Part shown: in pieces, positions 5,743 through 43,897 of the stretch | Numbering within the stretch: position 1 is the stretch's first letter | How the letters are laid out: every line of letters begins with the position of its first letter | NCBI GenBank assembly: GCA_036745095.1 | Contig: DAIOGT010000001.1 | Location: 26,201 to 90,200 of the forward strand | Reading direction: 5' to 3' | DNA from: Pyrinomonadaceae bacterium | GTDB lineage: Bacteria; Acidobacteriota; Blastocatellia; Pyrinomonadales; Pyrinomonadaceae | Length of the DNA stretch: 64,000 nucleotides | Notes under the pieces: model-generated | What the model was told of the DNA's origin: nothing | The model's database searches: none | What the model saw: the letters and a program-made list of their open reading frames with translations, nothing else | Translations under genes and position numbers: made by a program

Positions 5743-5784
5743 GGATGCTTCGTCACAGGTTAGTGAATGAGGAAGGACTTGGAC

Positions 5785-26555: not shown

Positions 26556-26784
26556 GCCGTCCTAAGAGCTGACAACGAAGTATTGCGAAAGCATCTCCAA
26601 AGGGTAACCAGAAACGCTGGATACAGAGAAGGCTGTTAGGCACGGCTGGGAGACTCGTGATTGGCAACCCAAGTACCTAGCTCCGGGTCAACTACTTGGG
26701 GCGATAAGTGAAATGGCTTCTGTAACTAGGTCCGCGTTACAGTCCGCTGGTTTCAGCCCCGAAGATCATTAAGGAGGTAAGGTG

Positions 26785-27804
26785 ATGTCGCGCGCAAAGG
26801 CGTTCAAATTTCTGGCGATCTGCGGCGTTCTTCTGTCGGCCTTCTCGTGGGTTAGTTTGAAATCGTTGTCTAATTCATCCGCGAGCGCGATGAACGACGT
26901 ACCTTCGGTCGGAGCGGTTAACATCAGCGATGACTACGTCGGCAGCGATGCGTGCAAGGACTGCCACGAAGATCAATTCAAGAACTTCTCTCATACCGCG
27001 CATGCCAAGCTCGCGACTCTCGGGTCCTGGAAGGGCAAAGTGACTGGCTGCGAGCAATGTCATGGCCCTGGTAAAGCACACATTCAAGAGGGCGATAAAA
27101 CGAAGATCCTCTCCTTTGCGAACAAGTCGCCGAAGGCGATCTCCGAGACATGCCTGACCTGCCACGCTGGCAAAGATGAACACAACAACTTCCGTCGTGG
27201 CGAGCACTGGCGCAACGATGTCGGCTGCACCGACTGTCACTCGTCACATAGTCCCGAACCAACCACCGGTAATCCCAGATCGAATACTTTCGTGTCCGAA
27301 GCCGCGCGGCGCAATACCGATACGTTGGTGGCGCACATGTTGCGCAATAGCGAACCACAACTCTGCCTAAATTGCCACACAGAGATGAAGGCGCAGTTCA
27401 ACATGCCCTTTCATCACCGCGTGCTCGAGGGCACGATGAAGTGCACCGATTGCCATAACGCGCATGGCGGCTTCGAACTCAAACAGACGAGACTTTCGGT
27501 TGGCGCTGATTCGGGTTGTCTCAAGTGTCATGTAGATAAGCAAGGCCCATTCGTCTTCGAGCATGCGCCGCTCAAGATCGACGGCTGTGCCATATGTCAC
27601 TCGCCGCACGGTTCCGCTAACCCGAAATTGCTGGTGCGATCACAGATCAGGCAGTTGTGTCTGGAATGCCACAGCAACGTCGCTGAGATAGGTGCGCCGA
27701 ACACCCCTAGTTTCCATAATCAGGCGACCGTCCGATTCCAGAATTGCACGACGTGTCACGTCAAGATTCACGGATCGCAGGTGGATCCTACCTTCTTCCG
27801 ATAG
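26785..27804 (+). CDS. periplasmic decahaem c-type cytochrome, MtrA/DmsE/PioA-like
   Basis: Ten CxxCH motifs by hand count (CKDCH, CEQCH, CLTCH, CTDCH, CLNCH, CTDCH, CLKCH, CAICH, CLECH, CTTCH) in ~340 aa. Signal peptide present. C-terminal CHVKIHGSQVDPTFFR. AAGGAGG SD. Confidence 0.9.
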   Translation: MSRAKAFKFLAICGVLLSAFSWVSLKSLSNSSASAMNDVPSVGAVNISDDYVGSDACKDCHEDQFKNFSHTAHAKLATLGSWKGKVTGCEQCHGPGKAHIQEGDKTKILSFANKSPKAISETCLTCHAGKDEHNNFRRGEHWRNDVGCTDCHSSHSPEPTTGNPRSNTFVSEAARRNTDTLVAHMLRNSEPQLCLNCHTEMKAQFNMPFHHRVLEGTMKCTDCHNAHGGFELKQTRLSVGADSGCLKCHVDKQGPFVFEHAPLKIDGCAICHSPHGSANPKLLVRSQIRQLCLECHSNVAEIGAPNTPSFHNQATVRFQNCTTCHVKIHGSQVDPTFFR

Positions 27805-27852
27805 GGTAGCGTCGAGATAGGGTCGCAGTCCTATTGAGCGAGGATCGTTGAT

Positions 27853-29952
27853 ATGAAGAACAGAACCGCGTTGAGTCTGCGTTTGTTGGCATGCTTGCTG
27901 ATGTTGGTCTTTGGCATAATCACTGCCGGCGCGCAAACTCCCACGCCTTCCCCCAGTCCCAAGGACCAGAAAGCGGCGGCCAGCCAACAGTCAAGCGCCA
28001 CGAACGAGGCTCAAGTATTAGGAAGTTACAACGTAACTTCAAGTATAGAAGTTGGTGTTCGTGGTCTCTCGGTTGATGGCAATAACAACAAGTATCAGAG
28101 CGATCTGAACTACAGACCGGGCTTGCGCGTCTTTGATTCCAGCTTCTTACTGCAGCATAAGGATCGTCGTGGCACGCTCTTCGATGAATTTCTCGTTAAT
28201 ACTTCAGGATGGGGTGGGGATCCGCAGGGCTACACCCGCATCATGGCTGAGAAATCAGGAATTTATCGCTTTGACGCAAATGTCCGCCGTGTGAAGTACT
28301 TCAATAACCTTTCAAATCTTGCCCTCGGACAGCACACCAATAATACGCGAATAAACGTTGGCGATTATGACCTGACGTTGCTCCCTGAAAATCAGAAACA
28401 CAAGTTCTATCTCGGCTATTCACGAAATACTTTGAACGGGCCAGGAATAACCACCTATGACTTCTCGCGCGACGAATACGCGATCAACACGAATCAGGAA
28501 ACTCGCGCAAATAATTTCCGCGTCGGAATGGACGCCCGGCTCGGCCCGATTGATATCTCACTCCTTCAGGGCGCGCGCTACTTCAAGGACGATACCACCT
28601 ACAATGTGCAATTCACGAATGTGGGCAACAATCCAACGAACACTTCGCGGATTGATAGGCTGTTTCGCGAGCTGCCGACAGGCGGTCGCCATTTCTTTAC
28701 GCGTGTTAGTGCTCATACGCTGCTGGCAAAAAGGCTCGACGTCACCGCCCGCTACATCTACACCAGCTCCACCACCAGGTTCTCGTTCTTCGAACAGCTT
28801 TCAGGTCGTTCTGGAATTTCTCCGGGCAATATCATAAATCAGGAGACGTTTACCACCAGCGGAAAGGTCACACGGCCGTACGCGCTGGGAGAACTGGGCG
28901 TCACCTTCATGGCCACAGACAAGTTCAGAATCTCTAACACGTTCCGCTTCGACAACTTTCGTATCAATGGCGCGGACGTACTTTCCGACTTCCTGCGCCA
29001 ATCAACCCCCGCCGGCGTTCCCCTCCCACCGACGACAACCCTTACCACTTTCGTGCGCTCGACAAAGTATCGCCGCATCCTGAACACGATTGAGGGGGAT
29101 TACCAGTTCAGTCCGCGCTTCGCTGTCCATGGGGGATTTCGTATTTCACATCGAGACATTGAACACTTCGAAGTCACCGACGACGAGGTAGAGAACCCGG
29201 TGTTTGACAATAACACCCATTCCGTCATCTTCGGTTTCAAGGCTCGGCCCGCTTCGAGCTGGAACATCTATTTCGATGGCGAGCGCGGTACCTCGGACAG
29301 CGTGTTCACGAGACTGGAAAGTAACAGGTATACGAACTTTCGCGCTCGCACCCGCTATGCGCCGAACGGCAAAGTCTCACTGAACGCCTCGGTCATAACA
29401 AGAGACAACAGGAATCCTTCCGAAGTAATCACAGAGATTTCGGGGTTGCCGGCAAATCTTCTGCCGAACAGTTTGGACGTTGACATCAAGAGTCGAGTTT
29501 TCACTTCGACTATCGATTGGACACCCAAGCCAAAATTCTCCTTGAGCGGGGGCTACACGCATTTGCGGGTAACGAGCAACGCGGGAATCATCCTGTTTCT
29601 GGCTAACGTAAGCACGCTGGGCCAGAGCCAGTACTTCATGAGGGACAACTTCTTCTTCATCAACACGCTCATCAATCCGATTCCTCGCTTGACGGTGTTC
29701 GCGAGTTACCGCATCAACCGGGATCCGGGCCAGGGTAATTTGGTGGCGCCCTCCAACAACCTGATCATCAGCTCGTATCCTATGACGTTCCAATCTCCCG
29801 AAGCACGAGCCACTCTTAAAGTAACGAATCGCATTGATTGGAACATCGGCTACCAGTATTACAACTACCGCGACTGGTTTGTGCCGGGACAGAACTACCA
29901 CTCCCACCAGCCCTACACGTCGTTGCGCATATATTTCGGCCGTAAAGGTTAG
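27853..29952 (+). CDS. outer-membrane beta-barrel, MtrB/PioB-like porin partner (tentative)
   Basis: 699 aa. Signal peptide ...ITAGAQT. Alternating-hydrophobicity, Y/F/N/R-rich sequence throughout. Lies immediately downstream of the decahaem gene, and its size matches MtrB-class barrels. Confidence 0.7.
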   Translation: MKNRTALSLRLLACLLMLVFGIITAGAQTPTPSPSPKDQKAAASQQSSATNEAQVLGSYNVTSSIEVGVRGLSVDGNNNKYQSDLNYRPGLRVFDSSFLLQHKDRRGTLFDEFLVNTSGWGGDPQGYTRIMAEKSGIYRFDANVRRVKYFNNLSNLALGQHTNNTRINVGDYDLTLLPENQKHKFYLGYSRNTLNGPGITTYDFSRDEYAINTNQETRANNFRVGMDARLGPIDISLLQGARYFKDDTTYNVQFTNVGNNPTNTSRIDRLFRELPTGGRHFFTRVSAHTLLAKRLDVTARYIYTSSTTRFSFFEQLSGRSGISPGNIINQETFTTSGKVTRPYALGELGVTFMATDKFRISNTFRFDNFRINGADVLSDFLRQSTPAGVPLPPTTTLTTFVRSTKYRRILNTIEGDYQFSPRFAVHGGFRISHRDIEHFEVTDDEVENPVFDNNTHSVIFGFKARPASSWNIYFDGERGTSDSVFTRLESNRYTNFRARTRYAPNGKVSLNASVITRDNRNPSEVITEISGLPANLLPNSLDVDIKSRVFTSTIDWTPKPKFSLSGGYTHLRVTSNAGIILFLANVSTLGQSQYFMRDNFFFINTLINPIPRLTVFASYRINRDPGQGNLVAPSNNLIISSYPMTFQSPEARATLKVTNRIDWNIGYQYYNYRDWFVPGQNYHSHQPYTSLRIYFGRKG

Positions 29953-30223: not shown

Positions 30224-30793
30224 ATGATACGAACTGCAACTCTTTCCACTCTAATCTTCGTTTCAATCCTCTTGGTCGGTTGTGCGCAGACGAATACAAA
30301 CAACGCGAACGTCGTAAGCAATGCTAACGTTGCGACAAACACCGCGAACGCTAACGCCAGCCCCCTAAGTAATACGAATGCCAGTCCCACCAGTAATGCT
30401 AACGTCAACACGCAGCGAGAAGGCGAAACAGGCATGGAGACAATGGACAAGGGCATGGAGGAGATGAAGCATGGCGCCGAGCAGATGGATGAGGCCGAGG
30501 AAAAGATGGATAAGGACATGATGAGTCACGGCATGCAGATGGCCAAGAACGGCCAAGAGATGGTCAAGAAAGGCATGGATATGGAATCGGACATGGACAT
30601 GTCTCAACATAAGGAGATGATGGATAAAGGGATGGACATGATGGATCAGGGCATGCAGATGATGAGCAAGGGGATGGACGCCAAGGATAAGAAGATGATG
30701 CATCAGGGCATGAACATGATGAAGAACGGCATGGACATGATGAACAAACGCAAGGATATGATGAAGAAGGGGATGGGAATGAAGCACATGTAA
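30224..30793 (+). CDS. lipoprotein with an Asn/Ala/Thr-rich linker and an extremely Met-rich C-terminal domain
   Basis: Lipobox ILLVGC. NANV/NTANANAS low-complexity linker. Then ~119 aa with ~37 Met by hand count (GMDMM, GMQMM, GMNMM repeats). Confidence 0.8.
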   Translation: MIRTATLSTLIFVSILLVGCAQTNTNNANVVSNANVATNTANANASPLSNTNASPTSNANVNTQREGETGMETMDKGMEEMKHGAEQMDEAEEKMDKDMMSHGMQMAKNGQEMVKKGMDMESDMDMSQHKEMMDKGMDMMDQGMQMMSKGMDAKDKKMMHQGMNMMKNGMDMMNKRKDMMKKGMGMKHM

Positions 30794-30891: not shown

Positions 30892-32796
30892 ATGAATTAC
30901 GGATTAGGGAGGCGCGCGCGTCCAGGCAACCGCTTTCTGCCAGCGGTGATGGTGGGTTGCATTTTGTTATGGTCTGGCGCCGCTCTTCCGCAGTCTGAGC
31001 ACGATGTCCATCACCCTGGTCAGAATGCCAATTCTCAAATGCCCCAACAGTCACCTTCACCGACAAGCATGGCCTCTCCGATGACCAGTCCTTCCTCAAG
31101 TGGGATGATGGGTGAGGGCGGCATGGAGGGAATGAAGGGGATGGAGGGAATGATGGGACAGCCGCGCAAGGAGCTCTATCCATCATTAATCGACTTACCC
31201 AATCTGTCCCCAGATCAGCGCGCCCAGATAGAACGGTTGGCTCAAGAACGCATGGAGTCGGGTCGGGCGTCAATGGCCGTCGCACTAGAACGACTGTCCG
31301 CCGCTTCCGCAAAACAGGATTACGCAGCTATGCAGGAAGCGTCGGCACAGCTGCGTGAGGCGCTCGCCCAATATGAGAGCGGGCTGGCGGCGCAGCGGGC
31401 ACTTAGAGACGGAAAAGTACCTAGCGACGTAGCACTTCAATGGTTTCAGCGCAACATGAATCTGCTGCCTGAGATCGGCACCGAAACTCCGCATGGAATC
31501 TTCGGGCTATCGTGGTTCCACTACATCACCATGATCATCCTGATCGCGTTTGCCGTCACGATGATCTGGATGTACTTCCACAAGATGCGGCGTGCGAACG
31601 CGCTGCTCTCCAGACTGGCGACCGCTACTTCGGACGCCAGTCTTATAGTTAGTCCGGCTACTTCTTCCGTCTCCCCTGCCACTACTGGCGGCGCACCAAC
31701 TTACGCACCTCCGAGCGAACCGATACCCGTCAGCTCTGATATCGCGCCATCGAAGTCGAATTCCTGGTCTGGTTCGTTACGAGTTGTCCGAATATTTCAG
31801 GAGACACCAGACGTTAAGACGTTTCGTTTTGTCGATCCGGATGGTGGCAAACTGCCGTTCACTTACCTGCCCGGTCAGTTCATAACTGTTACCATTGTCT
31901 CAGATGGAGTACCAGTAAGACGGTCCTACACTATTGCCTCATCTCCAACAAGACGGGACTCATGTGAAATCACGGTCAAGCGTGAGCAATATGGAGTTGT
32001 ATCTCAGTATCTGCATGATCAAGTCCATATAGGTGATCTGGTCCAGCTCATCGGCCCCTCAGGGAAGTTCACGTTTACTGGGCAGGAATCGGACAGCCTG
32101 GTGCTGATCGCCGGCGGTGTCGGTGTTACGCCGATGATGAGCGTTATTCGTTACCTGACTGATCGTTCGTGGTCTGGCGAGATCTTCTTCCTGTTCGGTT
32201 GCAAATCTGAAATCGACATTATCTTTAGAGAAGAGATTGAATATTTGCAGAAGCGGCACGCAAATCTACACGTCACGATTCTTCTCAATAAGAAACCTGA
32301 CGATGCGAAGAGTCCTTACCTGAGTGGCTACATTACCAAAGAGGTGGTTACTGAACGCGTGCCAGCGATCGTTTCGCGGCGCGTGCATATTTGCGGACCA
32401 CCACCAATGATGGAAGCCGTGAAACGAACACTTCTCGAATTGGAAGTGCCTGAAGAAAACATTAAGACCGAAATTTTTGCTGGAAAAACTCCGCCACCGA
32501 AAACTTCTCTGGGCGGCGCCAACGCAACGGCGACGTCGGCGATCTGTACTTTTGCTCGGTCAAAAAAAACCGCAGTGCTGCCGCCTGACAAAACAGTTTT
32601 GGAGGCATCGGAAGATGTTGGCGTGAACATTGGCTACTCGTGCCGAATAGGCGTTTGCGGGATTTGTAAAACAAAACTCCTTTCAGGCTCCGTGACCATG
32701 GAAGTGCAGGAAGCCTTAACGGATGACGATAAGGCGCAGAACATCATTCTCGCTTGCCAAGCCAAAGCGGTTGCGGATGTCGCAGTCGATGCATAA
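30892..32796 (+). CDS. fusion protein: signal peptide + Met-rich/LTXXQ-like periplasmic domain + one TM + FNR-type FAD/NAD(P)H reductase + plant-type [2Fe-2S] ferredoxin domain
   Basis: MASPMTSPSSSGMMGEGGMEGMKGMEGMMG. LSPDQRAQIERL. TM WFHYITMIILIAFAVTMIWMYF followed by HKMRRAN. RRSYTIASSP (RxYS FAD motif). LIAGGVGVTPMMS (NAD(P) binding). CRIGVCGICKTKL...ILACQA ([2Fe-2S] ligands). Confidence 0.8.
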   Translation: MNYGLGRRARPGNRFLPAVMVGCILLWSGAALPQSEHDVHHPGQNANSQMPQQSPSPTSMASPMTSPSSSGMMGEGGMEGMKGMEGMMGQPRKELYPSLIDLPNLSPDQRAQIERLAQERMESGRASMAVALERLSAASAKQDYAAMQEASAQLREALAQYESGLAAQRALRDGKVPSDVALQWFQRNMNLLPEIGTETPHGIFGLSWFHYITMIILIAFAVTMIWMYFHKMRRANALLSRLATATSDASLIVSPATSSVSPATTGGAPTYAPPSEPIPVSSDIAPSKSNSWSGSLRVVRIFQETPDVKTFRFVDPDGGKLPFTYLPGQFITVTIVSDGVPVRRSYTIASSPTRRDSCEITVKREQYGVVSQYLHDQVHIGDLVQLIGPSGKFTFTGQESDSLVLIAGGVGVTPMMSVIRYLTDRSWSGEIFFLFGCKSEIDIIFREEIEYLQKRHANLHVTILLNKKPDDAKSPYLSGYITKEVVTERVPAIVSRRVHICGPPPMMEAVKRTLLELEVPEENIKTEIFAGKTPPPKTSLGGANATATSAICTFARSKKTAVLPPDKTVLEASEDVGVNIGYSCRIGVCGICKTKLLSGSVTMEVQEALTDDDKAQNIILACQAKAVADVAVDA

Positions 32797-32802: not shown

Positions 32803-33564
32803 ATGAAAAGAGAGCGTATCCTTGTCGGTGGGTTACTGTTGCTCCTGCTAATTCTGTGGCTGGGGTTCCTGATCCACCGCTCGCCACGCTTTCCTGGAAG
32901 CCTATTCGGTAACGTACTCGCGATAACAGGCGCTCTGCTGATGCTGGTATTCCCTCTCGCCTATGCTGCTGCTAAACGAATTCCTCCCGTCAAGAGAATC
33001 CTGACGCGGCGAATCTCAATCGCGACTTTGCTGACCTGGCATCTCTACACAGGAATAGTCGGTTCCATCCTTGCGATCATCCACACCGGTCATCGGTTTG
33101 AAAGCAATCTTGGCATTGTTCTGACTGCAATGATGCTGCTGACGGTATTGAGCGGCTATGTCGGGAGACACTTCTTGAGCTACGTGACACTCGAACTTCA
33201 CGAGAAACAAACCCTGCTCAACAAGCTCGCGACGATTTACAACCAGACTGTTGCCGAACTAGGACGTCAACCCAATGTAACCGTAACTGCAGTGGCGTCG
33301 CACGGATTCTTTACGCCGATATTCAGCGGGTATGTTGCGCCTGGACCTTCGGCGAGCGAGAGCACGACACCAGTTTCTTATCGCGCCATTCACCTGGCAG
33401 AGTCAATTGCGGATGTGGAGTATGCGATTAAAACTCACGAGCTGTTTAAGCGCAGATCCGCGGTTTGGCTGAAAGTACACATCGCAACGTCAGCAGCGTT
33501 TTATGTCCTGTTAATTTTGCACGTCTGGAGCGAGATCTATTTCGGCCTGCGATGGCTGTCCTAG
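32803..33564 (+). CDS. five-TM membrane protein with two intramembrane His pairs (candidate di-haem b, ferric-reductase-domain-like)
   Basis: TM3 WHLYTGIVGSILAIIH and TM5 VHIATSAAFYVLLILH each carry His at i and i+14. Confidence 0.55.
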   Translation: MKRERILVGGLLLLLLILWLGFLIHRSPRFPGSLFGNVLAITGALLMLVFPLAYAAAKRIPPVKRILTRRISIATLLTWHLYTGIVGSILAIIHTGHRFESNLGIVLTAMMLLTVLSGYVGRHFLSYVTLELHEKQTLLNKLATIYNQTVAELGRQPNVTVTAVASHGFFTPIFSGYVAPGPSASESTTPVSYRAIHLAESIADVEYAIKTHELFKRRSAVWLKVHIATSAAFYVLLILHVWSEIYFGLRWLS

Positions 33565-33574: not shown

Positions 33575-34369
33575 ATGAAGAAACCTTTATTAGGTTCCCT
33601 AATCGCTATTGCGCTTGTGGTGTTGACCTTTGCCGCAATTCGAGCTACGACGTGGCAGAAGCACGTGAGCCCCGGGCAACTATCAGCCGCGCACGCGTCA
33701 ATGGCCCAAAACTGCGCAGCATGCCACACACCATACGAAGGTGCTGAAAACAGCAAGTGCATCAGTTGCCATGCAAACAATCAAGCACTGCTGCAACGTC
33801 AGCCGACTGCATTTCACGCCAGCATTGGAAACTGCACGCAATGCCACTTCGAACATCAAGGCATAAACGCACGGCTCGTCACCATGGACCACAACAAGCT
33901 GGCTGAAATCGGGTTCGATCTTATGGCGGCCGCGGCTTCTGACTCTGAGCAAATGAAGGTGAGAACACAGCTCAAGGGATGGTTAAGAATGCATGAGGGA
34001 ACACTTCCCACTATCAGCCACCCCCGCGTCACCTCGCTTGAGGCGACCCTTGACTGTGTCTCCTGCCATGGTACGAAAGACCGGCACCAGGGACTCTTCG
34101 GAAAGGGTTGCGTTTCTTGCCATGAGACGACGCAATGGACCATTGCAGATTTTCAGCATCCCTCTCCACGCTCGACCGATTGCGCTCAATGTCACCAAGC
34201 GCCACCGAGCCACTATATGATGCACTTTGAAATGGTTTCCAAAAAGATCGCCGCTCAAGGCCAAGGAAATGGGTGTTGCGAGGGCGTCCAGGTAAATCAA
34301 TGCTATCGCTGCCACCGGACAACTTCCTGGAATGACATTCAAGGCGTCGGTTATTACAAGCATCATTAA
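33575..34369 (+). CDS. membrane-anchored heptahaem c-type cytochrome
   Basis: N-terminal TM LLGSLIAIALVVLTFAAI. Seven CxxCH motifs by hand count (CAACH, CISCH, CTQCH, CVSCH, CVSCH, CAQCH, CYRCH). Confidence 0.85.
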   Translation: MKKPLLGSLIAIALVVLTFAAIRATTWQKHVSPGQLSAAHASMAQNCAACHTPYEGAENSKCISCHANNQALLQRQPTAFHASIGNCTQCHFEHQGINARLVTMDHNKLAEIGFDLMAAAASDSEQMKVRTQLKGWLRMHEGTLPTISHPRVTSLEATLDCVSCHGTKDRHQGLFGKGCVSCHETTQWTIADFQHPSPRSTDCAQCHQAPPSHYMMHFEMVSKKIAAQGQGNGCCEGVQVNQCYRCHRTTSWNDIQGVGYYKHH

Positions 34370-34966
34370 GGTACATCTCTTAAGCCTCCCCGCGCCTGGA
34401 GATGCGCCTCAATGTCATAAGGTCATAAAGGTCACGATTAGAAATAAAAGTCAAGAAATTGAAAAGAGCCAGGGACAGAAGTTCGGATAAACTGAATCCC
34501 TATTCAGAGAGTCAGACGAGGCTAAGCAACCGGCCGCAGGTTCGCGTGCTTGGCATCGCTTAACTATTTAAGGGGGGCTGCTGATGAAACTACCAACTCG
34601 CGGTTCATGCCCTTTCTTCAGCCGAATTAGTGCGGACAAGTGTCGCGGCGCGACCGTGGGCGTCCGGCACTCGCGCCCGCGCGCTCACGGTGATTGACTA
34701 TGCCCCTCATTCCGCTTTGACTAGGAAACGCAACGGGAGGGAGATGAAACTGATTCGACCGGAGATAGAGAGGCGTACGCGGGGGTGACGTGACCGCCGC
34801 CGACCGCTGGGCCTCCGCTGAACCGCCTGGGATTCCCCACGACAGGCAGCCCGTTGCAAGCTCAGCCGAGCAACGCCGTCAGGAGCAGTGGGGAGATTAG
34901 GGTTGCCGAATACCTTTCGATGGCTGTCGGCAGCGACACTGACAAGCCGTAGAAACGGGAGGCCAA

Positions 34967-36871
34967 ATGGAGACCGAACTTATTTCCAGGCGTTCGCTGT
35001 TGCAGGGCACCGGCGCGCTGGTCCTGTTGGCGGCGATAGAACACCTTTTACCTTCGTATGCCCGGGCGAGCGCCGCCGGACCCGCAGCGCAACAGTTGTC
35101 GGCACTGAGCGGCAACACGATTGAGTTAACCGTCGCAGAGACGCCGTTCCGCGTCGGCAACCGCACGGGGAAGGCGGTCACGATTAACGGCACTGTGCCC
35201 GGGCCCCTGATCCGTTTGCGTGAGGGCCAGGACGTCACGCTCCGCGTGACGAACCGCCTGCGGGAGACCTCTTCGATCCACTGGCACGGGATACTACTGC
35301 CGCCCGAGATGGACGGTGTGCCCGGCGTGAGCTTCGCGGGCATCAAGCCGGGGACGACCTTCACCTACCGCTTCCCGGTCAAGCAGTACGGCACCTACTG
35401 GTATCACAGCCACTCGGGCGGACAAGAGCAGAAGGGGATGTACGCCCCGATGATCATCGACCCGCGCGAGGACGATCCCGTAGAGTACGACCGCGAGTAC
35501 GTGGTGGTGCTCTCGGACTGGACCTTCCGGTCTGGGGTGGGAATAATCGGCGACCTCAAAAAGCAGGCGGGCTTCTTCAACTTCCAGCAGCGCACGATGG
35601 GCGAGTTCATCTCTGACGTGTCCGAGTATGGGTGGGCGCCGACTTGGGACAACTACCTGACGTGGGCGCGCATGCGAATGGATCCGACCGACTTCCTGGA
35701 CGTGACCGGCCGAGAGTACACCTACCTGATGAACGGCCTGTCGCCCGAAGCCAACTGGACGGGATTGTTTCGTCCGGGCGAGCGCGTGCGCCTACGCTTC
35801 ATTAACTCGGGCTCTATGACTTTTTTTGACGTACGGATTCCGGGCTTGAAGTTAACAGTCGTCCAGGCCGACGGGCAGAACGTGCACCCAGTGGAGGTGG
35901 ACGAGTTCCGCATGGGACCGGCCGAGACCTACGACGTGGTCGTCATGCCGGCCGCGGAGCGAGCCTACACGGTCTTCGCCGAGGCGCTTGACCGCAGCGG
36001 CTACGCGCGCGGCACCCTTGCTCCCCGCAGCGGGATGAGTGCGGAAGTCCCGACGCGTCGTCCGCGCCCGCTGCGCACAATGGAAGAGATGGGCATGAGC
36101 ATGGAAGGCGAGATGCCGGGCATGGCGCTCGAGATGGACAAGAATGTTAAGGCCGGCGGCAGGCCGATGTCCGGGATGGATCACGGCGCGGGGGCGGGCG
36201 CCGGCGGGCACCAGACGCCGGCCCCGCAGCCGCCGGGCGGCGGGCAGCCGACGCCGACTCCGCAGCAGCACGACATGAAGAACATGGCAGGAGCGGGGGG
36301 AAGCTCGGTGATCCCGGGCGCGACACCCGTTCGGCACGGGCCCGACAAGCACGGTTCGGGCAACCAAGCGGTGCCCGACTCCACGCGCAGCCGACTGGAC
36401 GACCCCGGCACTGGGCTCGGGGGGAGCGGCCGGCGCGTGCTCGTCTACACCGACCTCAAGGCGCTTGAGAAGTTTTTTGACACGCGGCCGCCGGAACGCG
36501 AACTCGAACTCCACGCGACCGGACACATGGAGCGCTTCATCTGGTCCTTCGACGGCAAGAAGTTTTCGCAGGACCCTCGCCCCGTGCACTTCCGCCACGG
36601 CGAGCGGCTGCGCTGGACGTTTGTCAACGACACGATGATGGAGCACACGTTCCACCTGCACGGGATGTGGATGCACCTCGATAACGGAGCCGGCGAGTAT
36701 CTGCCGCGCAAACACACGGTCATCGTCAAACCAGCTGAACGGGTCTCGGTCGCTGTCACCGCGGACGCGCCCGGCCGGTGGGCCTTCCACTGCCACCTAC
36801 TGGTGCACATGGAGACGGGTATGTTCCGCATAGTCGAGGTGTCGGCCGGGGCGACGGGAGGGCCGTCATGA
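34967..36871 (+). CDS. copA: copper-resistance multicopper oxidase (CopA/PcoA type)
   Basis: Tat signal ISRRSLLQGTG. Copper ligands HWHG, WYHSH, HLHGMW, HCHLLVHMETGM. Met-rich insert MEEMGMSMEGEMPGMALEMD...MSGMDHG. Confidence 0.9.
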   Translation: METELISRRSLLQGTGALVLLAAIEHLLPSYARASAAGPAAQQLSALSGNTIELTVAETPFRVGNRTGKAVTINGTVPGPLIRLREGQDVTLRVTNRLRETSSIHWHGILLPPEMDGVPGVSFAGIKPGTTFTYRFPVKQYGTYWYHSHSGGQEQKGMYAPMIIDPREDDPVEYDREYVVVLSDWTFRSGVGIIGDLKKQAGFFNFQQRTMGEFISDVSEYGWAPTWDNYLTWARMRMDPTDFLDVTGREYTYLMNGLSPEANWTGLFRPGERVRLRFINSGSMTFFDVRIPGLKLTVVQADGQNVHPVEVDEFRMGPAETYDVVVMPAAERAYTVFAEALDRSGYARGTLAPRSGMSAEVPTRRPRPLRTMEEMGMSMEGEMPGMALEMDKNVKAGGRPMSGMDHGAGAGAGGHQTPAPQPPGGGQPTPTPQQHDMKNMAGAGGSSVIPGATPVRHGPDKHGSGNQAVPDSTRSRLDDPGTGLGGSGRRVLVYTDLKALEKFFDTRPPERELELHATGHMERFIWSFDGKKFSQDPRPVHFRHGERLRWTFVNDTMMEHTFHLHGMWMHLDNGAGEYLPRKHTVIVKPAERVSVAVTADAPGRWAFHCHLLVHMETGMFRIVEVSAGATGGPS

Positions 36872-37758
36872 AAGCCTACTTACGAGCCGCCCCTACCTTT
36901 GTGCTCCTCTGTCTGTTGAGCGTGGCGACCGCCTCCGCGCAAACCAACCCGCACGCATCTCACGCCCCGAGTCCATCTCCGAGTTCGAGTCCGAGTCCCA
37001 CTCCGAGCGCGATACCCTCCCCCGCCGCTTCGGCGCAGACGGGCGGGAAGGGGAGCGGGCAAGAGAACCTGTTACCCAAGAAGGACTGGCCCAGCCCGGT
37101 GGACGACGAGATGCAGCACACCTACGTGCTCGCCGACGTGCTGGAGTTCCGCCCGGCGCATGACGGGGGCGACTTCCGGTGGGACGTCGAGGGCTGGCGC
37201 GGGGGCGACTTCAACCGGCTGTGGTTCAAAAGCGAGGGGGAGCGCGGCACCGCCTTTAAGGCCGAGTACGACATAGACCTGCAACTGCTCTACGGGCGCT
37301 TCGTCAAGAGATATTACGACTTTCAGGTCGGCGTCCGCGCCGAGACGCACAGCTTTCGCGGTGCCAACGTGACGCGCGCGCACGCCGTCGTCGGGATAGA
37401 GGGGCAAATTCCTTACCGCTACGAGCTCGAGACTGCCCTGTTCGTTAGCCACCAGGGCGACGTCTCGGGGCGCGTCTCGCTTACCAGGGATTATCTGATG
37501 ACCCAGCGCTGGATTCTCCAGGGGCGCTTTGAAACCAACATCGCGGCACACCGCGTTGAACGGTTCGGAGTCGGCAGAGGCCTGAACAACGTCGAGGCGG
37601 GCTTGCGCCTGCGCTACGAATTCCGCCAGCGCAAGGTCGGGCCGTACTTCGGCGTCTCGTTCGAGCGCAGTTTCTTCGGAACAGCGGACCTCGTGCGGCA
37701 GGACGGCGGCGACCCGAGCCAAGTGCGCTTCGTGGTGGGCGTGCGGCTGTGGCGCTAA
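36868..37758 (+). CDS. copB: copper resistance protein B (CopB/PcoB outer-membrane protein)
   Basis: ATGA-coupled to copA. Signal peptide ...ATASAQ. Motifs YVLADVLEFR, WDVEGWRGGDFNRLWFKSEGE and a GVRLWR end are typical of PcoB. The N-terminus is Ser/Pro-rich instead of Met-rich. Confidence 0.85.
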   Translation: MKAYLRAAPTFVLLCLLSVATASAQTNPHASHAPSPSPSSSPSPTPSAIPSPAASAQTGGKGSGQENLLPKKDWPSPVDDEMQHTYVLADVLEFRPAHDGGDFRWDVEGWRGGDFNRLWFKSEGERGTAFKAEYDIDLQLLYGRFVKRYYDFQVGVRAETHSFRGANVTRAHAVVGIEGQIPYRYELETALFVSHQGDVSGRVSLTRDYLMTQRWILQGRFETNIAAHRVERFGVGRGLNNVEAGLRLRYEFRQRKVGPYFGVSFERSFFGTADLVRQDGGDPSQVRFVVGVRLWR

Positions 37759-37774
37759 TAGGCGGCAACGTCCG

Positions 37775-39016
37775 ATGTGCGGGAAGTTGTCGTTGGTTTG
37801 GGTGGTGGCCACCACGACTTCCATCACGGCAGTACGCCTTACGGCTACCGGCTTGGCGTTGGCATGTTACCCCGTAGCTGTCGAGCGCGGATTTATGCCG
37901 CGCGCCGCAGCGGTTGAACGCACGCTGACAACGCTGCGTTTTTTCTGGAACAGCCCGCAAGGCCCCGAACTGAACGCGACTGGTTACCAGGGCTTTTACT
38001 ATCATTTTCTCGACATGCAGACCGGACGGAGAGCCTGGCAATGCGAATTGTCGACTGTTGACAGCGCGTTTCTGCTGGTGGGTGCGTTAACTGCAGGAAT
38101 GTATTTCGGTGCCGAAACGCTGGACGAACATGAAATCCGCGTGCTCGCCGATGCGCTTTATCGACGAGCCGATTGGCAGTGGGCGCAAAACGAAGGTGCG
38201 ACGCTTACGCACGGCTGGAAGCCCGAAAGCGGATTTCTTGAATACCGCTGGGAAGGCTACGATGAGGCACTGCTGCTGTACATCCTCGGGCTTGGTTCCC
38301 CTACTCATCCGCTGCCGGAGAGTAGCTATGCGGCATGGACTTCCACTTACCGGTGGGAACACTCTTACGGGTACGACTATCTGTATGCTGGGCCGCTATT
38401 CACGCACCAGCTCTCCCATATCTGGGTCGACTTTCGCGGTATCCAGGATGCCTTTATGCGCGCGAAGGGAATCGACTATTTTGAGAACAGCCGACGCGCT
38501 ACCCATGTACAACGTCAGTACGCCATCGCTAACCCTCTTGGGTTTGCGCACTATGGAGGGCACTGTTGGGGACTGACCGCGAGCGAAGGCCCCGGACCGG
38601 CCATCCTCAACGTCGGCGGCATCGAACGCCAGTTCTTCGATTACGTAGCGCGCGGCGTACCGTATGGACCAGACGACGGTACGATCGCGCCCTGGGCTTT
38701 GGCTGCCTCGCTTCCATTCGCTTCGGAGATTGTGCTGCCCGTGCTTGATTACTGCATTCATGACGTTAAGTTAACAGAGGCGAACCGCTACGGGTTCAAA
38801 GCGTCCTTCAATCCGACCTATCCTGTGACATCGGGCAATCCCCACGGCTGGGTGTCGCCCTGGCATTTCGGGCTTAATGAAGGTCCGACCGTTCTCATGA
38901 TCGAAAACTATCATACGGGATTATTGTGGCGGCTGATGCGGAACTGCCCATACATCGTTGGCGGCTTGCGTCGGGCGGGTTTTGACGGAGGTTGGTTATG
39001 CTCTGTCGAAGGATGA
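37775..39016 (+). CDS. glucoamylase-family (GH144-like beta-1,2-glucanase fold) protein, apparently 5'-truncated
   Basis: [14 protein letters not shown]...[16 protein letters not shown] fits the PF10091-type family from memory. No signal peptide or N-terminal conserved segment. The ORF opens only ~4 codons after the copB stop. Confidence 0.55.
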
Positions 39017-39056
39017 CAGGAAAGCTCAAGGCAACCAGAAACGAGTTATTACGAAG

Positions 39057-41432
39057 ATGCCTACGATTGAATTGAAAGACCCACTACCTCTGACGGCCGA
39101 AGAAGTCCAACGGATGAATGCTTACTGGCGCGCGGCAAATTATCTTTCGGTCGGTCAGATTTACCTGTACGACAATCCGCTGCTGCGCGAGCCGCTGCAA
39201 CTCAAACATGTAAAACCCAGATTGCTCGGTCACTGGGGTACAACACCAGGTTTGAACTTTATCTATGTGCATCTCAATCGTCTGATCAAAATACATGATC
39301 TGAGTGTGATCTATGTGGCGGGGCCGGGACATGGTGGACCTGGACTGGTTGCAAACACCTATCTCGAAGGCACTTACAGCGAGTTCTACCCGAGCATATC
39401 GCAGGATGAGGAGGGAATGAAAAAACTGTTCAAGCAGTTTTCCTTTCCTGGCGGTATCCCGAGTCATGTTGCTCCTGAAACACCAGGCTCAATTCACGAG
39501 GGCGGAGAATTAGGCTATGCAGTGGTTCATGCTTATGGTGCCGTCTTTGATAATCTTGAACTTATTGCGGCTTGTGTCGTCGGGGATGGTGAGGCCGAGA
39601 CTGGGCCATTGGCGGCGAGCTGGCACTCAAACAAGTTCGTAAATCCTGTTCGTGACGGCGCGGTTCTTCCGATTCTTCATCTCAATGGTTACAAGATCGC
39701 TGGTCCAACGGTGCTGGGCCGGTTGAGTAATGAAGAACTCAAGAGCTTATTCGTCGGGTACGGTCATAAACCGTATTTCGTTGAAGGCGATGAGCCTGAA
39801 GCGATGCATCAACTAATGGCTGCAAATCTCGACCAGGCGCTGGCTGATATCCGAGCGATTCAATCAGATGCGCGCGAGAATGGGTTAAAGAAACGGCCAC
39901 AGTGGCCCATGATCGTGCTGCGGACACCGAAGGGATGGACCGGACCGAAGATGGTGGACGGTAAACCGACCGAAGGCTCATTCCGCTCTCATCAAGTACC
40001 GCTTTCGAATCTTGCGACAAAGCCTGAACACGTACAGCAGCTTGAAGAGTGGCTGCGCAGTTACAAACCGGAAGAACTATTCGATGAGAAGGGAGGATTA
40101 AAACCGGAACTGGCAGAGATCGCCCCAAAGGGCGAGCGTCGCATGGGGAACAATCCGCATGCAAACGGGGGCGTGTTGTTGAAAGAATTGAAGCTTCCAG
40201 ACTATCGTGATTACGCTATTGACGTTCCACAGTCCGGGGTGGTTGAAGCTGAAGCGACACGCGTGATGGGCCGTTTGCTTCGCGACGTAATGAAATTCAA
40301 CCAACGGAGTTTTCGACTGATGGGACCGGATGAGACTTCCTCTAATCGGCTCGATGCGGTCTTTGAAGTTACCGATCGAGCCTGGATGGAACCGATATAC
40401 CCCGGTGATGAACACCTGTCCGCTGATGGTCGCGTGATGGAAGTGCTGAGCGAACACATGTGTCAAGGTTGGCTTGAAGGGTACTTGCTCACGGGACGTC
40501 ACGGTTTCTTCTCGTGTTACGAAGCGTTTATCCACATCGTCGACTCTATGTTCAATCAGCATGCAAAATGGTTAAAAGTAACTAACAACATTCCCTGGAG
40601 GCTTCCGATTGCTTCCCTTAACTACTTGCTGACGTCACACGTATGGCGACAGGATCACAACGGCTTTAGTCATCAAGATCCAGGCTTCATCGATCATGTG
40701 GTTAACAAGAAGGCCGAAGTTGTCAGAGTCTATCTCCCACCAGACGCAAACACTTTGCTCTCAGTGACCGATCACTGCTTGCGCAGTCGTCATTATGTCA
40801 ACGTGATCATCGCCGGCAAGCAGCCTGCTCTCCAATACCTAAGTATGGATGCCGCCGTGAAGCATTGTTCTGAAGGCATCGGTATTTGGGCCTGGGCCAG
40901 CAACGATGAGGGAGAAGAGCCGGATGTCGTAATGGCGTGCGCTGGCGATGTGCCAACGCTGGAGACTCTCGCGGCAGTGGACCTTCTTCGTCAGCATTTT
41001 TCCGAACTAAGAATCCGAGTAGTCAATGTGGTCGATCTGATGACCCTTCAACCGCAAAGCGAACATCCACATGGTCTGTCAGACAAAGAATTCGACATTC
41101 TGTTCACCACAGACAAGCCAATCATTTTCGTGTTCCATGGTTACCCCTGGTTGATTCATCGACTTACCTACCGCCGCACAAATCATAAAAACCTTCATGT
41201 GCGTGGATATAAAGAGGAGGGAACCACAACGACTCCGTTTGATATGTGCGTGCTGAATGATCTGGATCGTTTTCATCTGGTGATGGATGTCATCGAGCGG
41301 GTTCCGAAAGTGACCGCGATGGGCGCGCATGTATTGCAGAAGATGCGCGATAAGCTAATTGATCACAAGCAATACATCGTCGATCACGGTGAAGACATGC
41401 CCGAGATCCGCGATTGGAAGTGGCGCTATTAG
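39057..41432 (+). CDS. xfp: phosphoketolase (xylulose-5-P/fructose-6-P)
   Basis: [35 protein letters not shown] and GFSHQDPGF over ~790 aa. ATG at 39057; the longer track start is rejected. Confidence 0.9.
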
Positions 41433-41479: not shown

Positions 41480-43897
41480 ATGTTGAATCATATAGACGAG
41501 CACTCTTCTGCTGGAAGCAAGTCGGTAATCGAGGTCGATCTAAAAAACGCGTATAACGCAAGCGAATACGCAAGTCTTGAGAACTACCTGAGCAAGCTCG
41601 CCGGCATCCAAGCGGTTCACCTTGATCGTACACGAGGTGTGGCCCACCTGACGTACGACCCTTCTGTAACAACGGCCGATGCAATTGCTGCTGATCTGCA
41701 TGGCTGTGGTTATAAGTGTGATTGCCAAAGTCGCGGAGCGTCGAAATGCCAACCGGGCCATCCGACCGTTGGAGCCACAGATGAAGCAGGCCCAGGCCTG
41801 GTTAGTGCAAAACCGCTTGAGACCGGCGCTCACGTCATCCATGAGAAGGCCCACCACCCGATAGAACCGTCGCGACCACCCGATACCGCCCATGCCCAAA
41901 TGAAGCATGACGAGCATGCCGGGCACGGAGCAGAAATGGTCCGCGATCTTCTGCGCCGTTTCATCGTCTCTATCATACTTTCAATTCCCATTATTCTATT
42001 CTCTCCCATTGGGTCAATCCTCGGATTGTCGGGAATGCCGCCGTTCGGTATTCCGATGGACCTCTTCGGCTTTATTTTTGCCACTCCGGTTGTCTGGTGG
42101 GGAGGATGGCCGTTTATTTCGGCCGCTTGGCGCGCGCTCCGACGGGGCGAAGTAAACATGATGACGCTGATCGCGCTGGGAATTCTTGTCTCATACACCT
42201 ATTCGGTTGCCGCAACGTTCATTTTTAAAGGCGAAGTATTTTATGAAGCGGCGGCAATGCTCACCTCGTTCAGTCTCGCAGGCCACTGGCTGGAGATGCG
42301 CAGCCGGTTCGCCACCGGAAAAGCGGTTGAGGCATTATTGAAACTCGCTCCCGCGACCGCCCGCGTAAGGCGGGCGGGCGTTGAAACAGAAGTCCCGCTT
42401 GAACAAGTTGTCGTGGGGGACGAAATAGTTGTGCGACCAGGCGATCGGGTTGCCGTTGATGGGAAAGTCATCTCGGGCTCCTCTTACGTTGATGAGTCGA
42501 TGATCAGCGGTGAGCCGATACCAGTAGCAAAGACGGAAGGTGCGCGCGTCATTGGTGGTACTGTGAATCAAACCGGCGCATTTAACTTTACAGCAACCGC
42601 CGTAGGCGCCGACACAGCACTCGCCCGGATCGTTCAGATGGTCCAGAATGCCCAGGCAAGCAAAGCCCCGGCGCAACGCATCGCTGACACGGCGGGAAAG
42701 TATCTCGTCTTCGTAGCCCTGGGCTCTGGTCTTCTCGCGTTCTTAATTTGGTACCTTGTTGGTGGCGAAGGCTTTCTGTTTGCGCTTACTGCTGCAGTAT
42801 CAACCATAGTAATTGCCTGTCCTGACGCGCTTGCGCTGGCCACTCCTACGGCGATCACCGTGGGTGTAGGCAAAGGCGCACGCGAAGGAGTGCTGTTCAA
42901 GAACGCAACCGCACTTGAGGCAACTGCAGCAGTTGATACAGTGATTTTCGATAAGACTGGCACACTGACCGAGGGCAAGCCAGCGTTGACCGACGTCGTT
43001 GCTGCAAACAGTTTCAGTGAAGGTGAGTTATTACACTTTGCAGCTTCTGCCGATCAGCCGTCGCAGCATCCCCTGGCTCAGGCGATTGTCGCTGCAACTC
43101 AGGCCCGAGGTATTAAACTGTCGGCACCCGAAAATTTTGATTCGATACCTGGTCATGGTGTTGAAGCAAACGTTGATCAGCGGCGGGTACTCATCGGAAA
43201 CAAGAAACTAATGGTGCGCGAGAAGATTCCGCTGGATGGACTTGAGGAACGGGTCAGCAGTCTTGCAGCCGACGCTAAGACGGCGATGTATGTTGCAGTC
43301 GATGGGCAAGCAGCAGGCCTGGTTGCAGTTGCGGACACGATTCGCGAGAGCGCCCGACGGGCTGTGAAGTTACTTCACGAGGCTGGTGTTGAGACCGTGA
43401 TGTTGACCGGAGATAACAAGTTCACGGCCGATGCAGTGGCCAGACAACTTGGAATGGATACCGTGCTTGCAGAGGTTTTGCCGGAAGACAAGGCCAACGA
43501 GGTCAAGAAACTCCAGGCGAAAGGTCGCAAAGTTGCGATGGTCGGGGATGGAGTCAACGATGCTCCTGCCCTTGCGCAGGCAGACGTTGGCATTGCTATC
43601 GGTGCGGGAACGGATGTCGCCGTTGAAACAGCAGATGTTGTTCTGGTTAAGAACGATCCATCAGACGTGGCGGGCTCGATTCAACTTGCGCAGAAGGTGC
43701 GCAGCAAGATCAAACAGAATCTCTTCTGGGCGGTTATCTACAACCTGATCGCCATCCCGATCGCTGCGGGAGCCCTTTATCCTTCGTTTGGGTTGCTGCT
43801 ACGCCCGGAGTGGGCCGCTCTCGCAATGAGCGCCTCAACCATTACGGTGACACTAAATGCATTGCTGCTCAATCGTGTGCGCCTTCGCACCAATTGA
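41480..43897 (+). CDS. P1B-type heavy-metal ATPase with atypical CPD TM motif, His-rich N-terminus and a Cys-less HMA-like fold
   Basis: [18 protein letters not shown]-region GEPIPV. TM4 IACPDAL, TM5 IYN, TM6 AMSAST. N-terminal HEKAHHP...[13 protein letters not shown]. Confidence 0.9.

Follow-up and report, generated by a model that had tools for sequence, protein, structure and literature searches.

Which reaction may be served by a protein that joins a periplasmic, histidine- and methionine-rich helical domain through a single transmembrane (TM) helix to a cytoplasmic flavoprotein of the ferredoxin-NADP reductase (FNR) type and a [2Fe-2S] ferredoxin domain? This question is raised by a gene (positions 30892-32796, plus strand) in a stretch of 64,000 nucleotides from a Pyrinomonadaceae bacterium of the phylum Acidobacteriota (assembly GCA_036745095.1, contig DAIOGT010000001.1, positions 26,201 to 90,200), which we refer to as the window and to which all coordinates without a locus name apply. 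A preliminary description of the gene, made from the sequence alone, had not recognized such a fusion from elsewhere and had offered two readings, a metal-gated reductase or the electron-input module of the cluster. When genomes were scanned at one per species, 409 loci with the N-terminal module were returned, 80 of which were retrieved, classified by phmmer with respect to their form and used as the basis of the locus counts for the module given here. It is readily apparent from these loci that the fusion is not rare but the majority form (61 of 80) of a widespread, often plasmid-borne family. The second of the two readings is the best one, with the cluster being the two genes immediately downstream (80 of 80 loci). 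We propose that the fusion plays two parts in a conserved redox complex of the inner membrane, that of the cytoplasmic subunit through which electrons enter and that of a membrane/periplasmic subunit, and that this chain, as a component of mobile copper-homeostasis islands, exports electrons for periplasmic copper handling, most likely for the reduction of Cu(II). To this reading as a whole we assign a probability of roughly 0.55. The module as such is real, conserved, mobile and uncharacterised.

Architecture of the fusion protein

The gene is read as one uninterrupted frame encoding 634 amino acids (aa), and all strings quoted in the preliminary description are found in the protein at the residues given: the Met/Gly stretch MASPMTSPSSSGMMGEGGMEGMKGMEGMMG (residues 60-89), LSPDQ (105-109), HKMRRAN (230-236), RRSYTIASSP (343-352), GGVGVTPM (408-415) and CRIGVCGIC (584-592), the last of which forms the pattern C-X4-C-X2-C-X29-C with Cys622 as the fourth cysteine. 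The following features can be distinguished:

30892..32796, plus strand: whole fusion gene with predicted periplasmic His/Met-rich helical module, TM helix, linker, FNR and [2Fe-2S] domains; same fused frame in 61 of 80 related loci
30892..30990, plus strand: positively charged N-terminal region and hydrophobic segment (residues 1-33), signal peptide or uncleaved anchor (Kyte-Doolittle hydropathy, 14-33; AlphaFold2 helix, 15-29)
31000..31014, plus strand: HxxHH motif (H37, H40, H41), candidate Cu(II) site
31069..31158, plus strand: Met/Gly-rich disordered stretch (residues 60-89, pLDDT <50) with MxxMxxM (M81, M84, M87), candidate Cu(I) site
31168..31461, plus strand: predicted periplasmic helical hairpin and short amphipathic helix (residues 93-190; AlphaFold2 helices and conservation)
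31495..31599, plus strand: TM helix and predicted cytoplasmic KMRRA motif (residues 202-236; hydropathy and conservation)
31600..31779, plus strand: low-complexity Ser/Thr/Pro/Ala linker (residues 237-296) without in-frame start codon
31780..32424, plus strand: FNR-type module, consisting of FAD_binding_6 (residues 297-394, Pfam E 1.7e-15) and NAD_binding_1 (residues 405-511, E 2.2e-19)
32557..32769, plus strand: plant-type [2Fe-2S] ferredoxin domain (residues 556-626; C584, C589, C592, C622; Pfam Fer2, E 5.7e-15)

The C-terminal half belongs to the FNR-like proteins, with 57.6 bits for FAD_binding_6 (cut-off 21.1), 70.5 bits for NAD_binding_1 (cut-off 22) and the signature motifs RRSYT (343-347), GGVGVTP (408-414) and CGPPPMM (501-507); its closest match in the PDB is BenC (1KRH, 3e-27). 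The last domain is a [2Fe-2S] ferredoxin by its Fer2 (PF00111) score of 55.4 bits against a cut-off of 21 and by four cysteines in the order C-X4-C-X2-C...C. To residues 1-290 a Pfam scan assigned no domain.

Hydropathy analysis revealed exactly two hydrophobic segments (residues 14-33 and 202-232), which appear as helices 15-29 and 208-249 in an AlphaFold2 model based on a 46-sequence alignment. The model furthermore shows disorder at residues 34-90, a confident hairpin at 107-173 and a short helix at 177-188, with pLDDT >90 for the periplasmic helices 107-140, 144-173 and 177-188. Because positive charges precede the first hydrophobic segment (R7, R8, R10, R14) and follow the second (K231, R233, R234), residues 34-201 are predicted to be periplasmic, and an in-out-in topology fits hydropathy as well as the positive-inside rule. 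The layout given in the preliminary description, i.e., a periplasmic Met-rich helical part, a single TM helix and cytoplasmic FNR and [2Fe-2S] domains, is thus borne out by motifs, Pfam assignments, the two hydrophobic segments and the positive charges. Where it had also named a signal peptide, the hydrophobic segment at residues 14-33 and the arginines in front of it are indeed present, and both a signal peptide and an uncleaved anchor fit them. The linker between TM helix and FAD domain varies from 19 to 160 aa across homologues, which is why it would serve only as a tether holding the flavoprotein to its membrane partner.

A fixed gene order with a probable b-type and a multihaem c-type cytochrome

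In all 80 loci, the gene for the N-terminal module, fused or not to FNR and Fer2, is followed on the same strand and in fixed order by homologues of a 253-aa membrane protein and of a cytochrome c. For the 253-aa protein by itself, at least 76 of the 80 loci were counted. The genes mostly overlap or nearly touch at their ends; in the window, the gap between the fusion gene and the gene for the 253-aa protein amounts to 6 bp. The two partners are:

32803..33564, plus strand: 253-aa protein with 5 TM helices, probable di-haem b cytochrome (HX13H at 80/94 and 226/240; SGxxG at 117-121; additional invariant H25 and H97)
33575..34369, plus strand: membrane-anchored periplasmic cytochrome c with 7 CXXCH motifs and an N-terminal hydrophobic anchor (residues 1-27)

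The 253-aa protein is ~60% identical between the window and Bacteroidota and yields >1000 matches. Six histidines (H25, H80, H94, H97, H226 and H240) are invariant (100%, 74 sequences). Placed by AlphaFold2 and hydropathy, H80/H94 and H226/H240 form two HX13H pairs on two TM helices, with SGxxG on the helix between the pairs and WX3HX13H on the last helix, and positive-inside analysis (N-terminus inside: MKRER; KR-rich loop at residues 58-71) puts the two His pairs close to opposite membrane faces. The arrangement of a di-haem cytochrome b, two invariant His pairs 13-14 residues apart with one per membrane face, is therefore present. He et al. (2017, PMC5566968) described WX3HX13H and SGxxG as motifs of the FRD domain and of inner-membrane proteins in PCC3/PCC4 that presumably carry two haems. 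Haem b binding has been demonstrated for one DUF4405 protein (PMC11334425). DUF4405 matches were obtained for 31 of 38 members of the family, most of them sub-threshold (best E 4.8e-6), and sub-threshold Ferric_reduct matches for 5 of 38. From the motifs and these sub-threshold Pfam matches, fold search results not being used for the assignment, we infer that the 253-aa protein probably is a di-haem b cytochrome. An 85-residue conserved helical insert is predicted to face the cytoplasm, and the ferredoxin domain could dock there.

In the cytochrome c, the 7 CXXCH motifs and 10 further histidines, which include the presumed distal ligands, are 99-100% conserved (68 sequences), and a Cytochrom_c3_2 score of 32.1 (cut-off 25) for 33575-34369 places it among the multihaem cytochromes c.

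Two observations on these partners may be added. In several Planctomycetota, a DUF547 domain (E 1e-14 to 1e-18; L042:1980-3599, L052:11805-13520, L076:2037-3701 and L077:11760-13574) follows the C-terminal end of the di-haem-like membrane protein, on the predicted periplasmic side. In the window, a relic of a second heptahaem cytochrome c gene copy with altered C-terminus occupies positions 44726-45078 (open reading frame (ORF) 44666-45085, plus strand), just 3' of a P1B-type ATPase gene (41480-43897). It shares 84% nucleotide identity with 34015-34369 and covers only the C-terminal four CXXCH motifs; apart from this truncated relic, no second copy of the module was found in the window.

Forms and distribution of the module

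The N-terminal module, FNR and Fer2 share one frame in 61 of the 80 loci and are cut by a contig end in four further cases; one locus carries a frameshifted form. In 13 loci, mostly from PVC bacteria, the N-terminal gene precedes a separate adjacent gene for FNR-Fer2 (gap of 2 bp in L001), and one locus (L009) has the N-terminal module alone. On two metagenome contigs (L003/L004) it is fused to Fer2 and FNR is missing. These variants (fused, split, Fer2-only and N-term-only) and the strict gene order are the reason why we read the module as an electron chain. They point to Fer2 as the domain in contact with the membrane protein and to the N-terminal module as a core subunit. As the TM helix and the place in the operon are kept without FNR (L003/L004) or without both FNR and Fer2 (L009), the N-terminal module would belong to the core of the cytochrome complex rather than act as a regulator of the flavoprotein.

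The module spans about ten phyla or classes and is found in Acidobacteriota, Planctomycetota, Nitrospirota, Verrucomicrobiota, Bacteroidota, Legionella, Methylobacter and others, the best match (54%) being a metagenome-assembled genome of the Blastocatellia (Acidobacteriota). Database names are generic: the fusion is called '2Fe-2S iron-sulfur cluster-binding protein', 'ferredoxin-NADP reductase' or 'FAD-binding oxidoreductase', the membrane protein 'iron reductase' or 'hypothetical', and the cytochrome 'cytochrome c3 family'. The 253-aa membrane protein is encoded on 54 plasmids in PLSDB, 27 of them conjugative, with Sphingobium (17), Alteromonas (7) and Legionella (5, including L. pneumophila pH3-D-14) as hosts, and the same gene order occurs in Dyadobacter, Geothermobacter, L. 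pneumophila and Sphingomonas plasmids. On the conjugative L. pneumophila plasmid pH3-D-14 (NZ_CP114577.1, 24796-43479; L109), the module lies directly 3' of a complete F0F1-type ATP synthase operon and also near genes for a 1028-aa protein with multicopper oxidase domains and for DUF2933 and DUF2231 proteins.

The N-terminal module is a family of its own

An alignment of 72 homologues underlies the conservation figures for the N-terminal part. H37, H40 and H41 of the HxxHH motif are conserved in 99-100% of the sequences and M81, M84 and M87 of MxxMxxM are identical in 92-99%, so that the Met/Gly cluster pointed out in the preliminary description (residues 60-89) is not only present but retained in its key residues; it is a dense cluster, with 9 Met per 33 residues (binomial P ~1.5e-7 versus the rest of the protein). 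In the TM helix, H210, M214, M224, Y228, M232, R234 and A235 are near-invariant and L217 and F220 conserved, and HxxHH, MxxMxxM and TM helix alike are conserved to at least 92%. The conservation of the helix far exceeds that of a plain anchor, which argues that it is a structural part of a membrane complex and not a passive anchor. The hairpin region (residues 93-190) carries an L-S/T-P-x-Q motif and the invariant residues R110, R120, M147, S163, G164, W184 and F185.

A search with residues 1-290 retrieved 164 proteins, none with a Pfam domain in the matching part, and a profile search of 1.84 billion representatives returned 509 clusters (50% identity) at E<=1e-3. Judged by these searches, the N-terminal module is a family without a Pfam model.

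The preliminary description had likened the helical part to LTXXQ periplasmic metal-stress proteins. This resemblance amounts to a hint, given by the LSPDQ motif and by a weak hhalign match (65% probability, 34 columns at the L-T-x-x-Q helix) with the Metal_resist-like family encoded in the same loci. Membership in the LTXXQ/Metal_resist families is not demonstrated: hidden Markov models (HMMs) of PF07813 (LTXXQ) and PF13801 (Metal_resist) matched none of 46 members of the N-terminal family at E<=0.1, a PDB profile search gave no match between the module and CpxP, Spy or ZraP, and Foldseek with the AlphaFold2 model of the N-terminal part (pLDDT 74) found nothing in the PDB below E=0.2.

Copper genes in the genetic environment

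All ORFs of the 80 loci were clustered and neighbours were counted within 10 kb of the module. Genes for multicopper oxidases occurred in 37 loci, P1B-ATPases in 30, CopB and RND proteins in 16 each and OEP in 13; any copper-linked gene was present in 75 of the 80 loci, and in 49 of the 50 loci of at least 15 kb. Directly upstream of the module, 58 of 80 loci encode a secreted protein of ~310 aa, in which a long stretch rich in Met and Gly is combined with a Metal_resist/LTXXQ-like domain at the C-terminus (27.8 bits, slightly below the cut-off). On the Sphingomonas plasmid pNXO2, the module has the gene of a MerR-type heavy-metal regulator on one side and copA, copB and the gene of a P-type ATPase on the other. 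The window conforms to this picture:

30224..30793, plus strand: gene for a Met-rich (20% Met), lipoprotein-like protein of 189 aa, which fills the slot of the Met-rich Metal_resist/LTXXQ-like gene
34967..36871, plus strand: CopA/PcoA-type multicopper oxidase (Pfam Cu-oxidase_3, Cu-oxidase_2, Cu-oxidase)
36868..37758, plus strand: CopB outer-membrane copper resistance protein (Pfam CopB, E 2.8e-67), the likely ATG start overlapping the copA stop
4363-5742, 5767-7359 and 7384-10698: Cus-like efflux set of OEP, CusB-like protein with HMBD, and RND protein
10689-12443: 584-aa protein encoded after the RND gene, with a Metal_resist (PF13801)-like C-terminus that matches the family upstream of the module in 58 loci

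A second P1B-ATPase and the Cus-like system are thus also found near the module within the window. Over copA/copB (34000-38000) the GC content rises to 0.60-0.66, compared with 0.51-0.54 on both sides, which suggests a separate horizontal origin of copAB within the island.

Proposed electron path

Electrons from NAD(P)H would be passed to FAD and on to the [2Fe-2S] cluster, all within the C-terminal half of the fusion, and would then cross two stacked b haems, an inner and an outer one, in the 253-aa protein. The 7-haem membrane-anchored cytochrome c would be the next carrier, followed by a periplasmic acceptor. The conserved TM helix of the N-terminal half probably packs against the cytochrome b, and the periplasmic hairpin would bear a flexible arm with HxxHH, offering Cu(II)-type ligands, and MxxMxxM, offering Cu(I)-type ligands. 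Cu(II) on the His arm would be reduced to Cu(I) and handed to Met-rich carriers, to Cus-type or other efflux systems or to a multicopper oxidase. Such a complex would be the bacterial functional analogue of the eukaryotic Fre/STEAP/Dcytb cupric reductases. An outward flow of electrons would be favoured by the standard potentials, which are near -320 mV for NAD(P)H and near +150 mV for Cu(II)/Cu(I), and by a membrane potential that is negative inside. Copper is proposed as the acceptor because of the gene context and because of the ligand chemistry of the HxxHH/MxxMxxM arm. Whereas the electron-export role is well supported by the anatomy of the module, the copper target comes from association only; the chain may instead reduce Fe(III), another metal such as Ag or Au, or a partner protein.

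Several points weigh against the proposal of a copper-directed export chain. For the N-terminal domain, HMM, PDB profile and fold searches detected no relative of known function. The 253-aa protein of the window stays below the Pfam gathering thresholds (17.9 vs 28 and 17.1 vs 26.7 for Ferric_reduct PF01794 and DUF4405 PF14358, respectively), AlphaFold2 modelled it with mediocre confidence (pLDDT 68), the sole Foldseek matches, to b561/Dcytb, were not significant (E ~1), and a PDB profile search led to the TM domain of NOX5 (5O0T) at a non-significant E of 0.5. We found no experiment or paper that ties the module to copper, and the link is thus one of guilt by association; Geothermobacter and L063 are among the few loci without copper genes nearby. 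Production of Cu(I), the more toxic species, is counter-intuitive beside a Cu(I)-oxidising multicopper oxidase, and it is hard to see why a metal that takes up one electron at the membrane surface should require a cytochrome with 7 haems. Finally, databases name the membrane protein 'iron reductase', which leads to the first of the alternatives.

Alternative readings

The module could reduce iron, as a ferric or ferric-chelate reductase, or export electrons in general, be it to acquire iron or to respire extracellularly, with the copper genes as co-travelling cargo; a reductase next to a multicopper oxidase would then parallel yeast Fre1/Fet3. The 'iron reductase' label comes from both UniRef and PGAP, and it is joined by the weak Ferric_reduct matches, the weak match to the NOX5 TM domain (5O0T) and the Fe(III) reducer Geothermobacter, which has the module without copper genes. 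Nevertheless, we consider this reading unlikely, given that the neighbours are of the copper type in 75 of 80 loci (CopB, His-rich/HMA P1B-ATPases, Cus systems with HMBD, Met-rich Metal_resist proteins), that siderophore, TonB and Feo families are not among the recurrent neighbour clusters, and that HxxHH and MxxMxxM are ligand sets of the copper type.

The iron reading could also draw on two genes immediately 5' of the module in the window, which lie outside the conserved module:

26782..29952, plus strand: DmsE/MtrA-family decahaem cytochrome gene and gene for a 699-aa barrel-like protein

The first of them (26782-27804) encodes a member of the DmsE/MtrA decahaem family (TIGR03508, 234.3 bits, cut-off 192.2). 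The 699-aa protein (27853-29952) has no Pfam family and no PDB match at E<=1, and was therefore not assigned to MtrB/PioB. Neither gene occurs in any of the 80 module loci. In 19 metagenome loci with the barrel gene (L090-L108), this gene is invariably paired with the decahaem gene and in no case lies next to the module, even where the flank extends over 10 kb. This rules out the pair as a conserved part of the system and takes from the iron reading what its proximity seemed to offer. The pair is an independent porin-cytochrome unit; that it is functionally coupled with the module in this one organism is conceivable but unsupported. As a two-gene unit it is conserved in soil metagenomes, and the barrel protein may represent a new family of porin partners for MtrA-like cytochromes.

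According to a second alternative, the exported electrons do not reduce copper but help to protect or repair the periplasm when it is stressed by copper or oxidants, be it that Met-rich scavengers are kept reduced, that O2-derived species are detoxified or that the multicopper oxidase or another enzyme is fed. The very Met-rich periplasmic proteins encoded directly 5' in most loci would be plausible clients, the MsrQ/Fre/MsrP system is known as a case in which an FRD-type haem protein passes cytoplasmic electrons to periplasmic repair, and both the recurrence of NAD(P)H-generating dehydrogenases for glucose 6-phosphate, glutamate, alcohols and aldehydes in the islands and the fusion of the membrane protein to DUF547 in some Planctomycetota can be cited in its favour. 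However, MsrP-type molybdoenzymes, peroxidases and thiol-disulfide proteins are not conserved neighbours, multihaem c-type proteins are without known methionine sulfoxide reductase chemistry, and a multicopper oxidase needs no external electron feed. This reading, too, is improbable in our view.

A third possibility, which takes up the metal-gated reading of the preliminary description, is that the periplasmic domain is a CpxP/ZraP-like metal sensor which gates the cytoplasmic reductase across the membrane. The L-T/S-P-x-Q motif at the head of the helical hairpin, the weak profile similarity to the co-encoded Metal_resist-like family and the conserved His and Met ligands are in line with it. 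On the other side stand the empty LTXXQ/Metal_resist HMM searches in 46 members and the missing structural match; moreover, a low-complexity linker of 19-160 aa is a poor conduit for conformational signals, the two halves are separate proteins in 13 loci, and the N-terminal module exists without any reductase in L009. The terms 'sensor-type' and 'metal-gated' hence found no specific support, as the module persists in the operon without FNR or without FNR and Fer2, and we regard gating as quite improbable.

That a frameshift or assembly error joined the gene of a small periplasmic protein to that of a soluble reductase, as the 13 loci with adjacent separate genes might insinuate, can be dismissed: the frame is continuous and free of stop codons through ~31.45-31.75 kb, where the preliminary description had allowed for an error, a separate reductase cannot start in the linker because there is no in-frame ATG, GTG or TTG between residues 237 and 300, and the same fusion recurs independently in 61 assemblies, complete plasmids and genomes of isolates among them.

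Further genes in module-bearing islands

NAD(P)H-generating and carbon-shunt genes recur in the islands: glucose-6-phosphate dehydrogenase (nine loci), glutamate dehydrogenase, alcohol dehydrogenase, aldehyde dehydrogenase, glyceraldehyde-3-phosphate dehydrogenase and phosphoketolase. They may be cargo for reductant supply or stress metabolism, and their fit with a reductant-consuming function of the module is circumstantial. Oleate hydratase also recurs in the same islands and plasmids. A glycoamylase-like gene of the PF10091 family lies near the module in at least 10 loci (L001, L005, L011, L013, L017, L028, L110 and others), and in the window 37775-39016 and 38958-41432 are entries of PF10091/phosphoketolase-type cargo near the module. 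Just 5' of the N-terminal gene, 25 loci encode a 105-aa CBM_48/AMPK1_CBM-like protein with a Cys-rich C-terminus (CCEPGC...CSKCC; e.g., L065:5883-6197), which is absent from the window. A second, stand-alone FNR-like ORF is located at 61386-62117 (phmmer E 4e-19 versus the FNR part of the fusion). A search for promoters, terminators and MerR-operator-like inverted repeats between 26.3 and 35.1 kb produced nothing that exceeded shuffled expectation, and no inverted repeats upstream of genes.

Relationship to known systems

The building blocks of the module are all of known kinds. Like the proteins of the FRD superfamily (Fre1/FRO/STEAP/NOX, with Dcytb as a functional analogue), the proposed complex would pass electrons from a cytoplasmic reductant via flavin and two bis-His b haems across the membrane to an extracytoplasmic acceptor, and it shares with them the two HX13H His pairs on two helices. 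Several FRD proteins are ferric and cupric reductases, downstream of which Met-rich Cu(I) acceptors (Ctr1, Mets motifs) act. In contrast to that superfamily, the module has an FNR of the PDR/BenC type and an extra [2Fe-2S] domain instead of FAD_binding_8/NAD_binding_6, carries flavoprotein and haem protein on separate polypeptides, contains a haem protein with 5 TM helices and marginal similarity to PF01794, and adds a 7-haem cytochrome c and a His/Met-rich periplasmic subunit. Consistently, the fusion does not qualify as a NOX/FRE dehydrogenase, with 21.1 bits for NAD_binding_6 (cut-off 22.2) and no match to FAD_binding_8. In MsrQ (YedZ)/Fre/MsrP of E. coli, an FRD-type haem b membrane protein likewise conveys electrons from a cytoplasmic FNR-like NAD(P)H reductase to a periplasmic acceptor; the module differs by the lack of a molybdoenzyme, a tethered reductase with [2Fe-2S], a multihaem cytochrome c partner and the copper context.

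By their motifs, comparable membrane proteins are those of PCC3/PCC4 (PMC5566968) and the DUF4405 cytochromes (PMC11334425), which also have five TM helices, WX3HX13H, SGxxG, two predicted b haems and a neighbouring periplasmic multihaem cytochrome. For these, electron exchange with quinones and a role in Fe(II) oxidation or together with flavinylated proteins have been proposed (PMC5566968, PMC11334425), whereas none has been reported with a tethered FNR-[2Fe-2S] protein or a His/Met-rich subunit. Residues 295-634 of the fusion are homologous to the FNR-[2Fe-2S] reductases of oxygenases and related systems (PDR, BenC, GbcB, Hcr, PaaE). The scores fell far short of the NCBIfam equivalog cut-offs (GbcB 226 vs 500, Hcr 216 vs 383, PaaE 184 vs 421, BenC 155 vs 430), and the partner would be a membrane cytochrome and not an oxygenase. 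NqrF resembles the fusion in that it, too, is anchored in the membrane and feeds electrons from NADH via FAD and [2Fe-2S] into a transmembrane chain, but it has the order TM-Fer2-FNR and no periplasmic domain. CpxP, Spy and ZraP (LTXXQ PF07813; Metal_resist PF13801) are helical hairpin proteins of the periplasm with an LTXXQ-type motif, to which the predicted hairpin of the fusion may be compared, and a Met-rich Metal_resist-like gene stands directly 5' in most module loci, yet HMM and structural comparisons of the N-terminal domain with this group do not go beyond the 34-column hhalign match mentioned above.

Reduction of Cu(II) to Cu(I), as proposed here, is an activity of the bacterial cupric reductases CcoG, NDH-2 and RclA, and the combination of His (Cu(II)) and Met (Cu(I)) ligand sets is found in CopC. 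None of the four is related to the fusion in sequence. CcoG works with [4Fe-4S] clusters, the flavoproteins NDH-2 and RclA act at or in the cytoplasm, and in none of these reductases do electrons reach the periplasm over a haem wire. As bacterial cupric reductases, a review on copper homeostasis in bacteria from 2020 gives only CcoG and NDH-2 (PMC7558416). A full-text literature search found no description of the module, and a Sphingobium nickel transcriptome paper and its supplement do not mention it. New are the N-terminal family without Pfam model or PDB relative, its obligatory pairing with two further proteins, a probable cytochrome b of the DUF4405/FRD-like kind and the heptahaem cytochrome c, and the consistent setting in copper islands and plasmids.

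Possible implications for periplasmic copper handling

Tentatively, and with less than even confidence, we suggest that a horizontally mobile complex of three to five parts would be the first bacterial system dedicated to the NAD(P)H-driven reduction of Cu(II) in the periplasm, a haem-wire counterpart of the eukaryotic Fre/STEAP enzymes. Its parts would be the TM subunit rich in His and Met, with FNR-[2Fe-2S] either fused to it or encoded next to it, a di-haem cytochrome b, a heptahaem cytochrome c and a Met-rich Metal_resist carrier. The module might thereby fill a gap in the understanding of what sets the redox state of copper in the oxic periplasm, ahead of efflux systems and chaperones that are strictly specific for Cu(I). 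If the cupric reductase reading is true, conversion of incoming Cu(II) to Cu(I) would make it usable by Cu(I)-specific Met-rich carriers, RND pumps and multicopper oxidases. If the module reduces copper (or silver or gold), it would supply a missing enzymatic step of metal-resistance islands. The module has cultured hosts, and for its carriers in general it would, if the proposal is correct, represent a new route by which bacteria spend NAD(P)H outside the cytoplasm.

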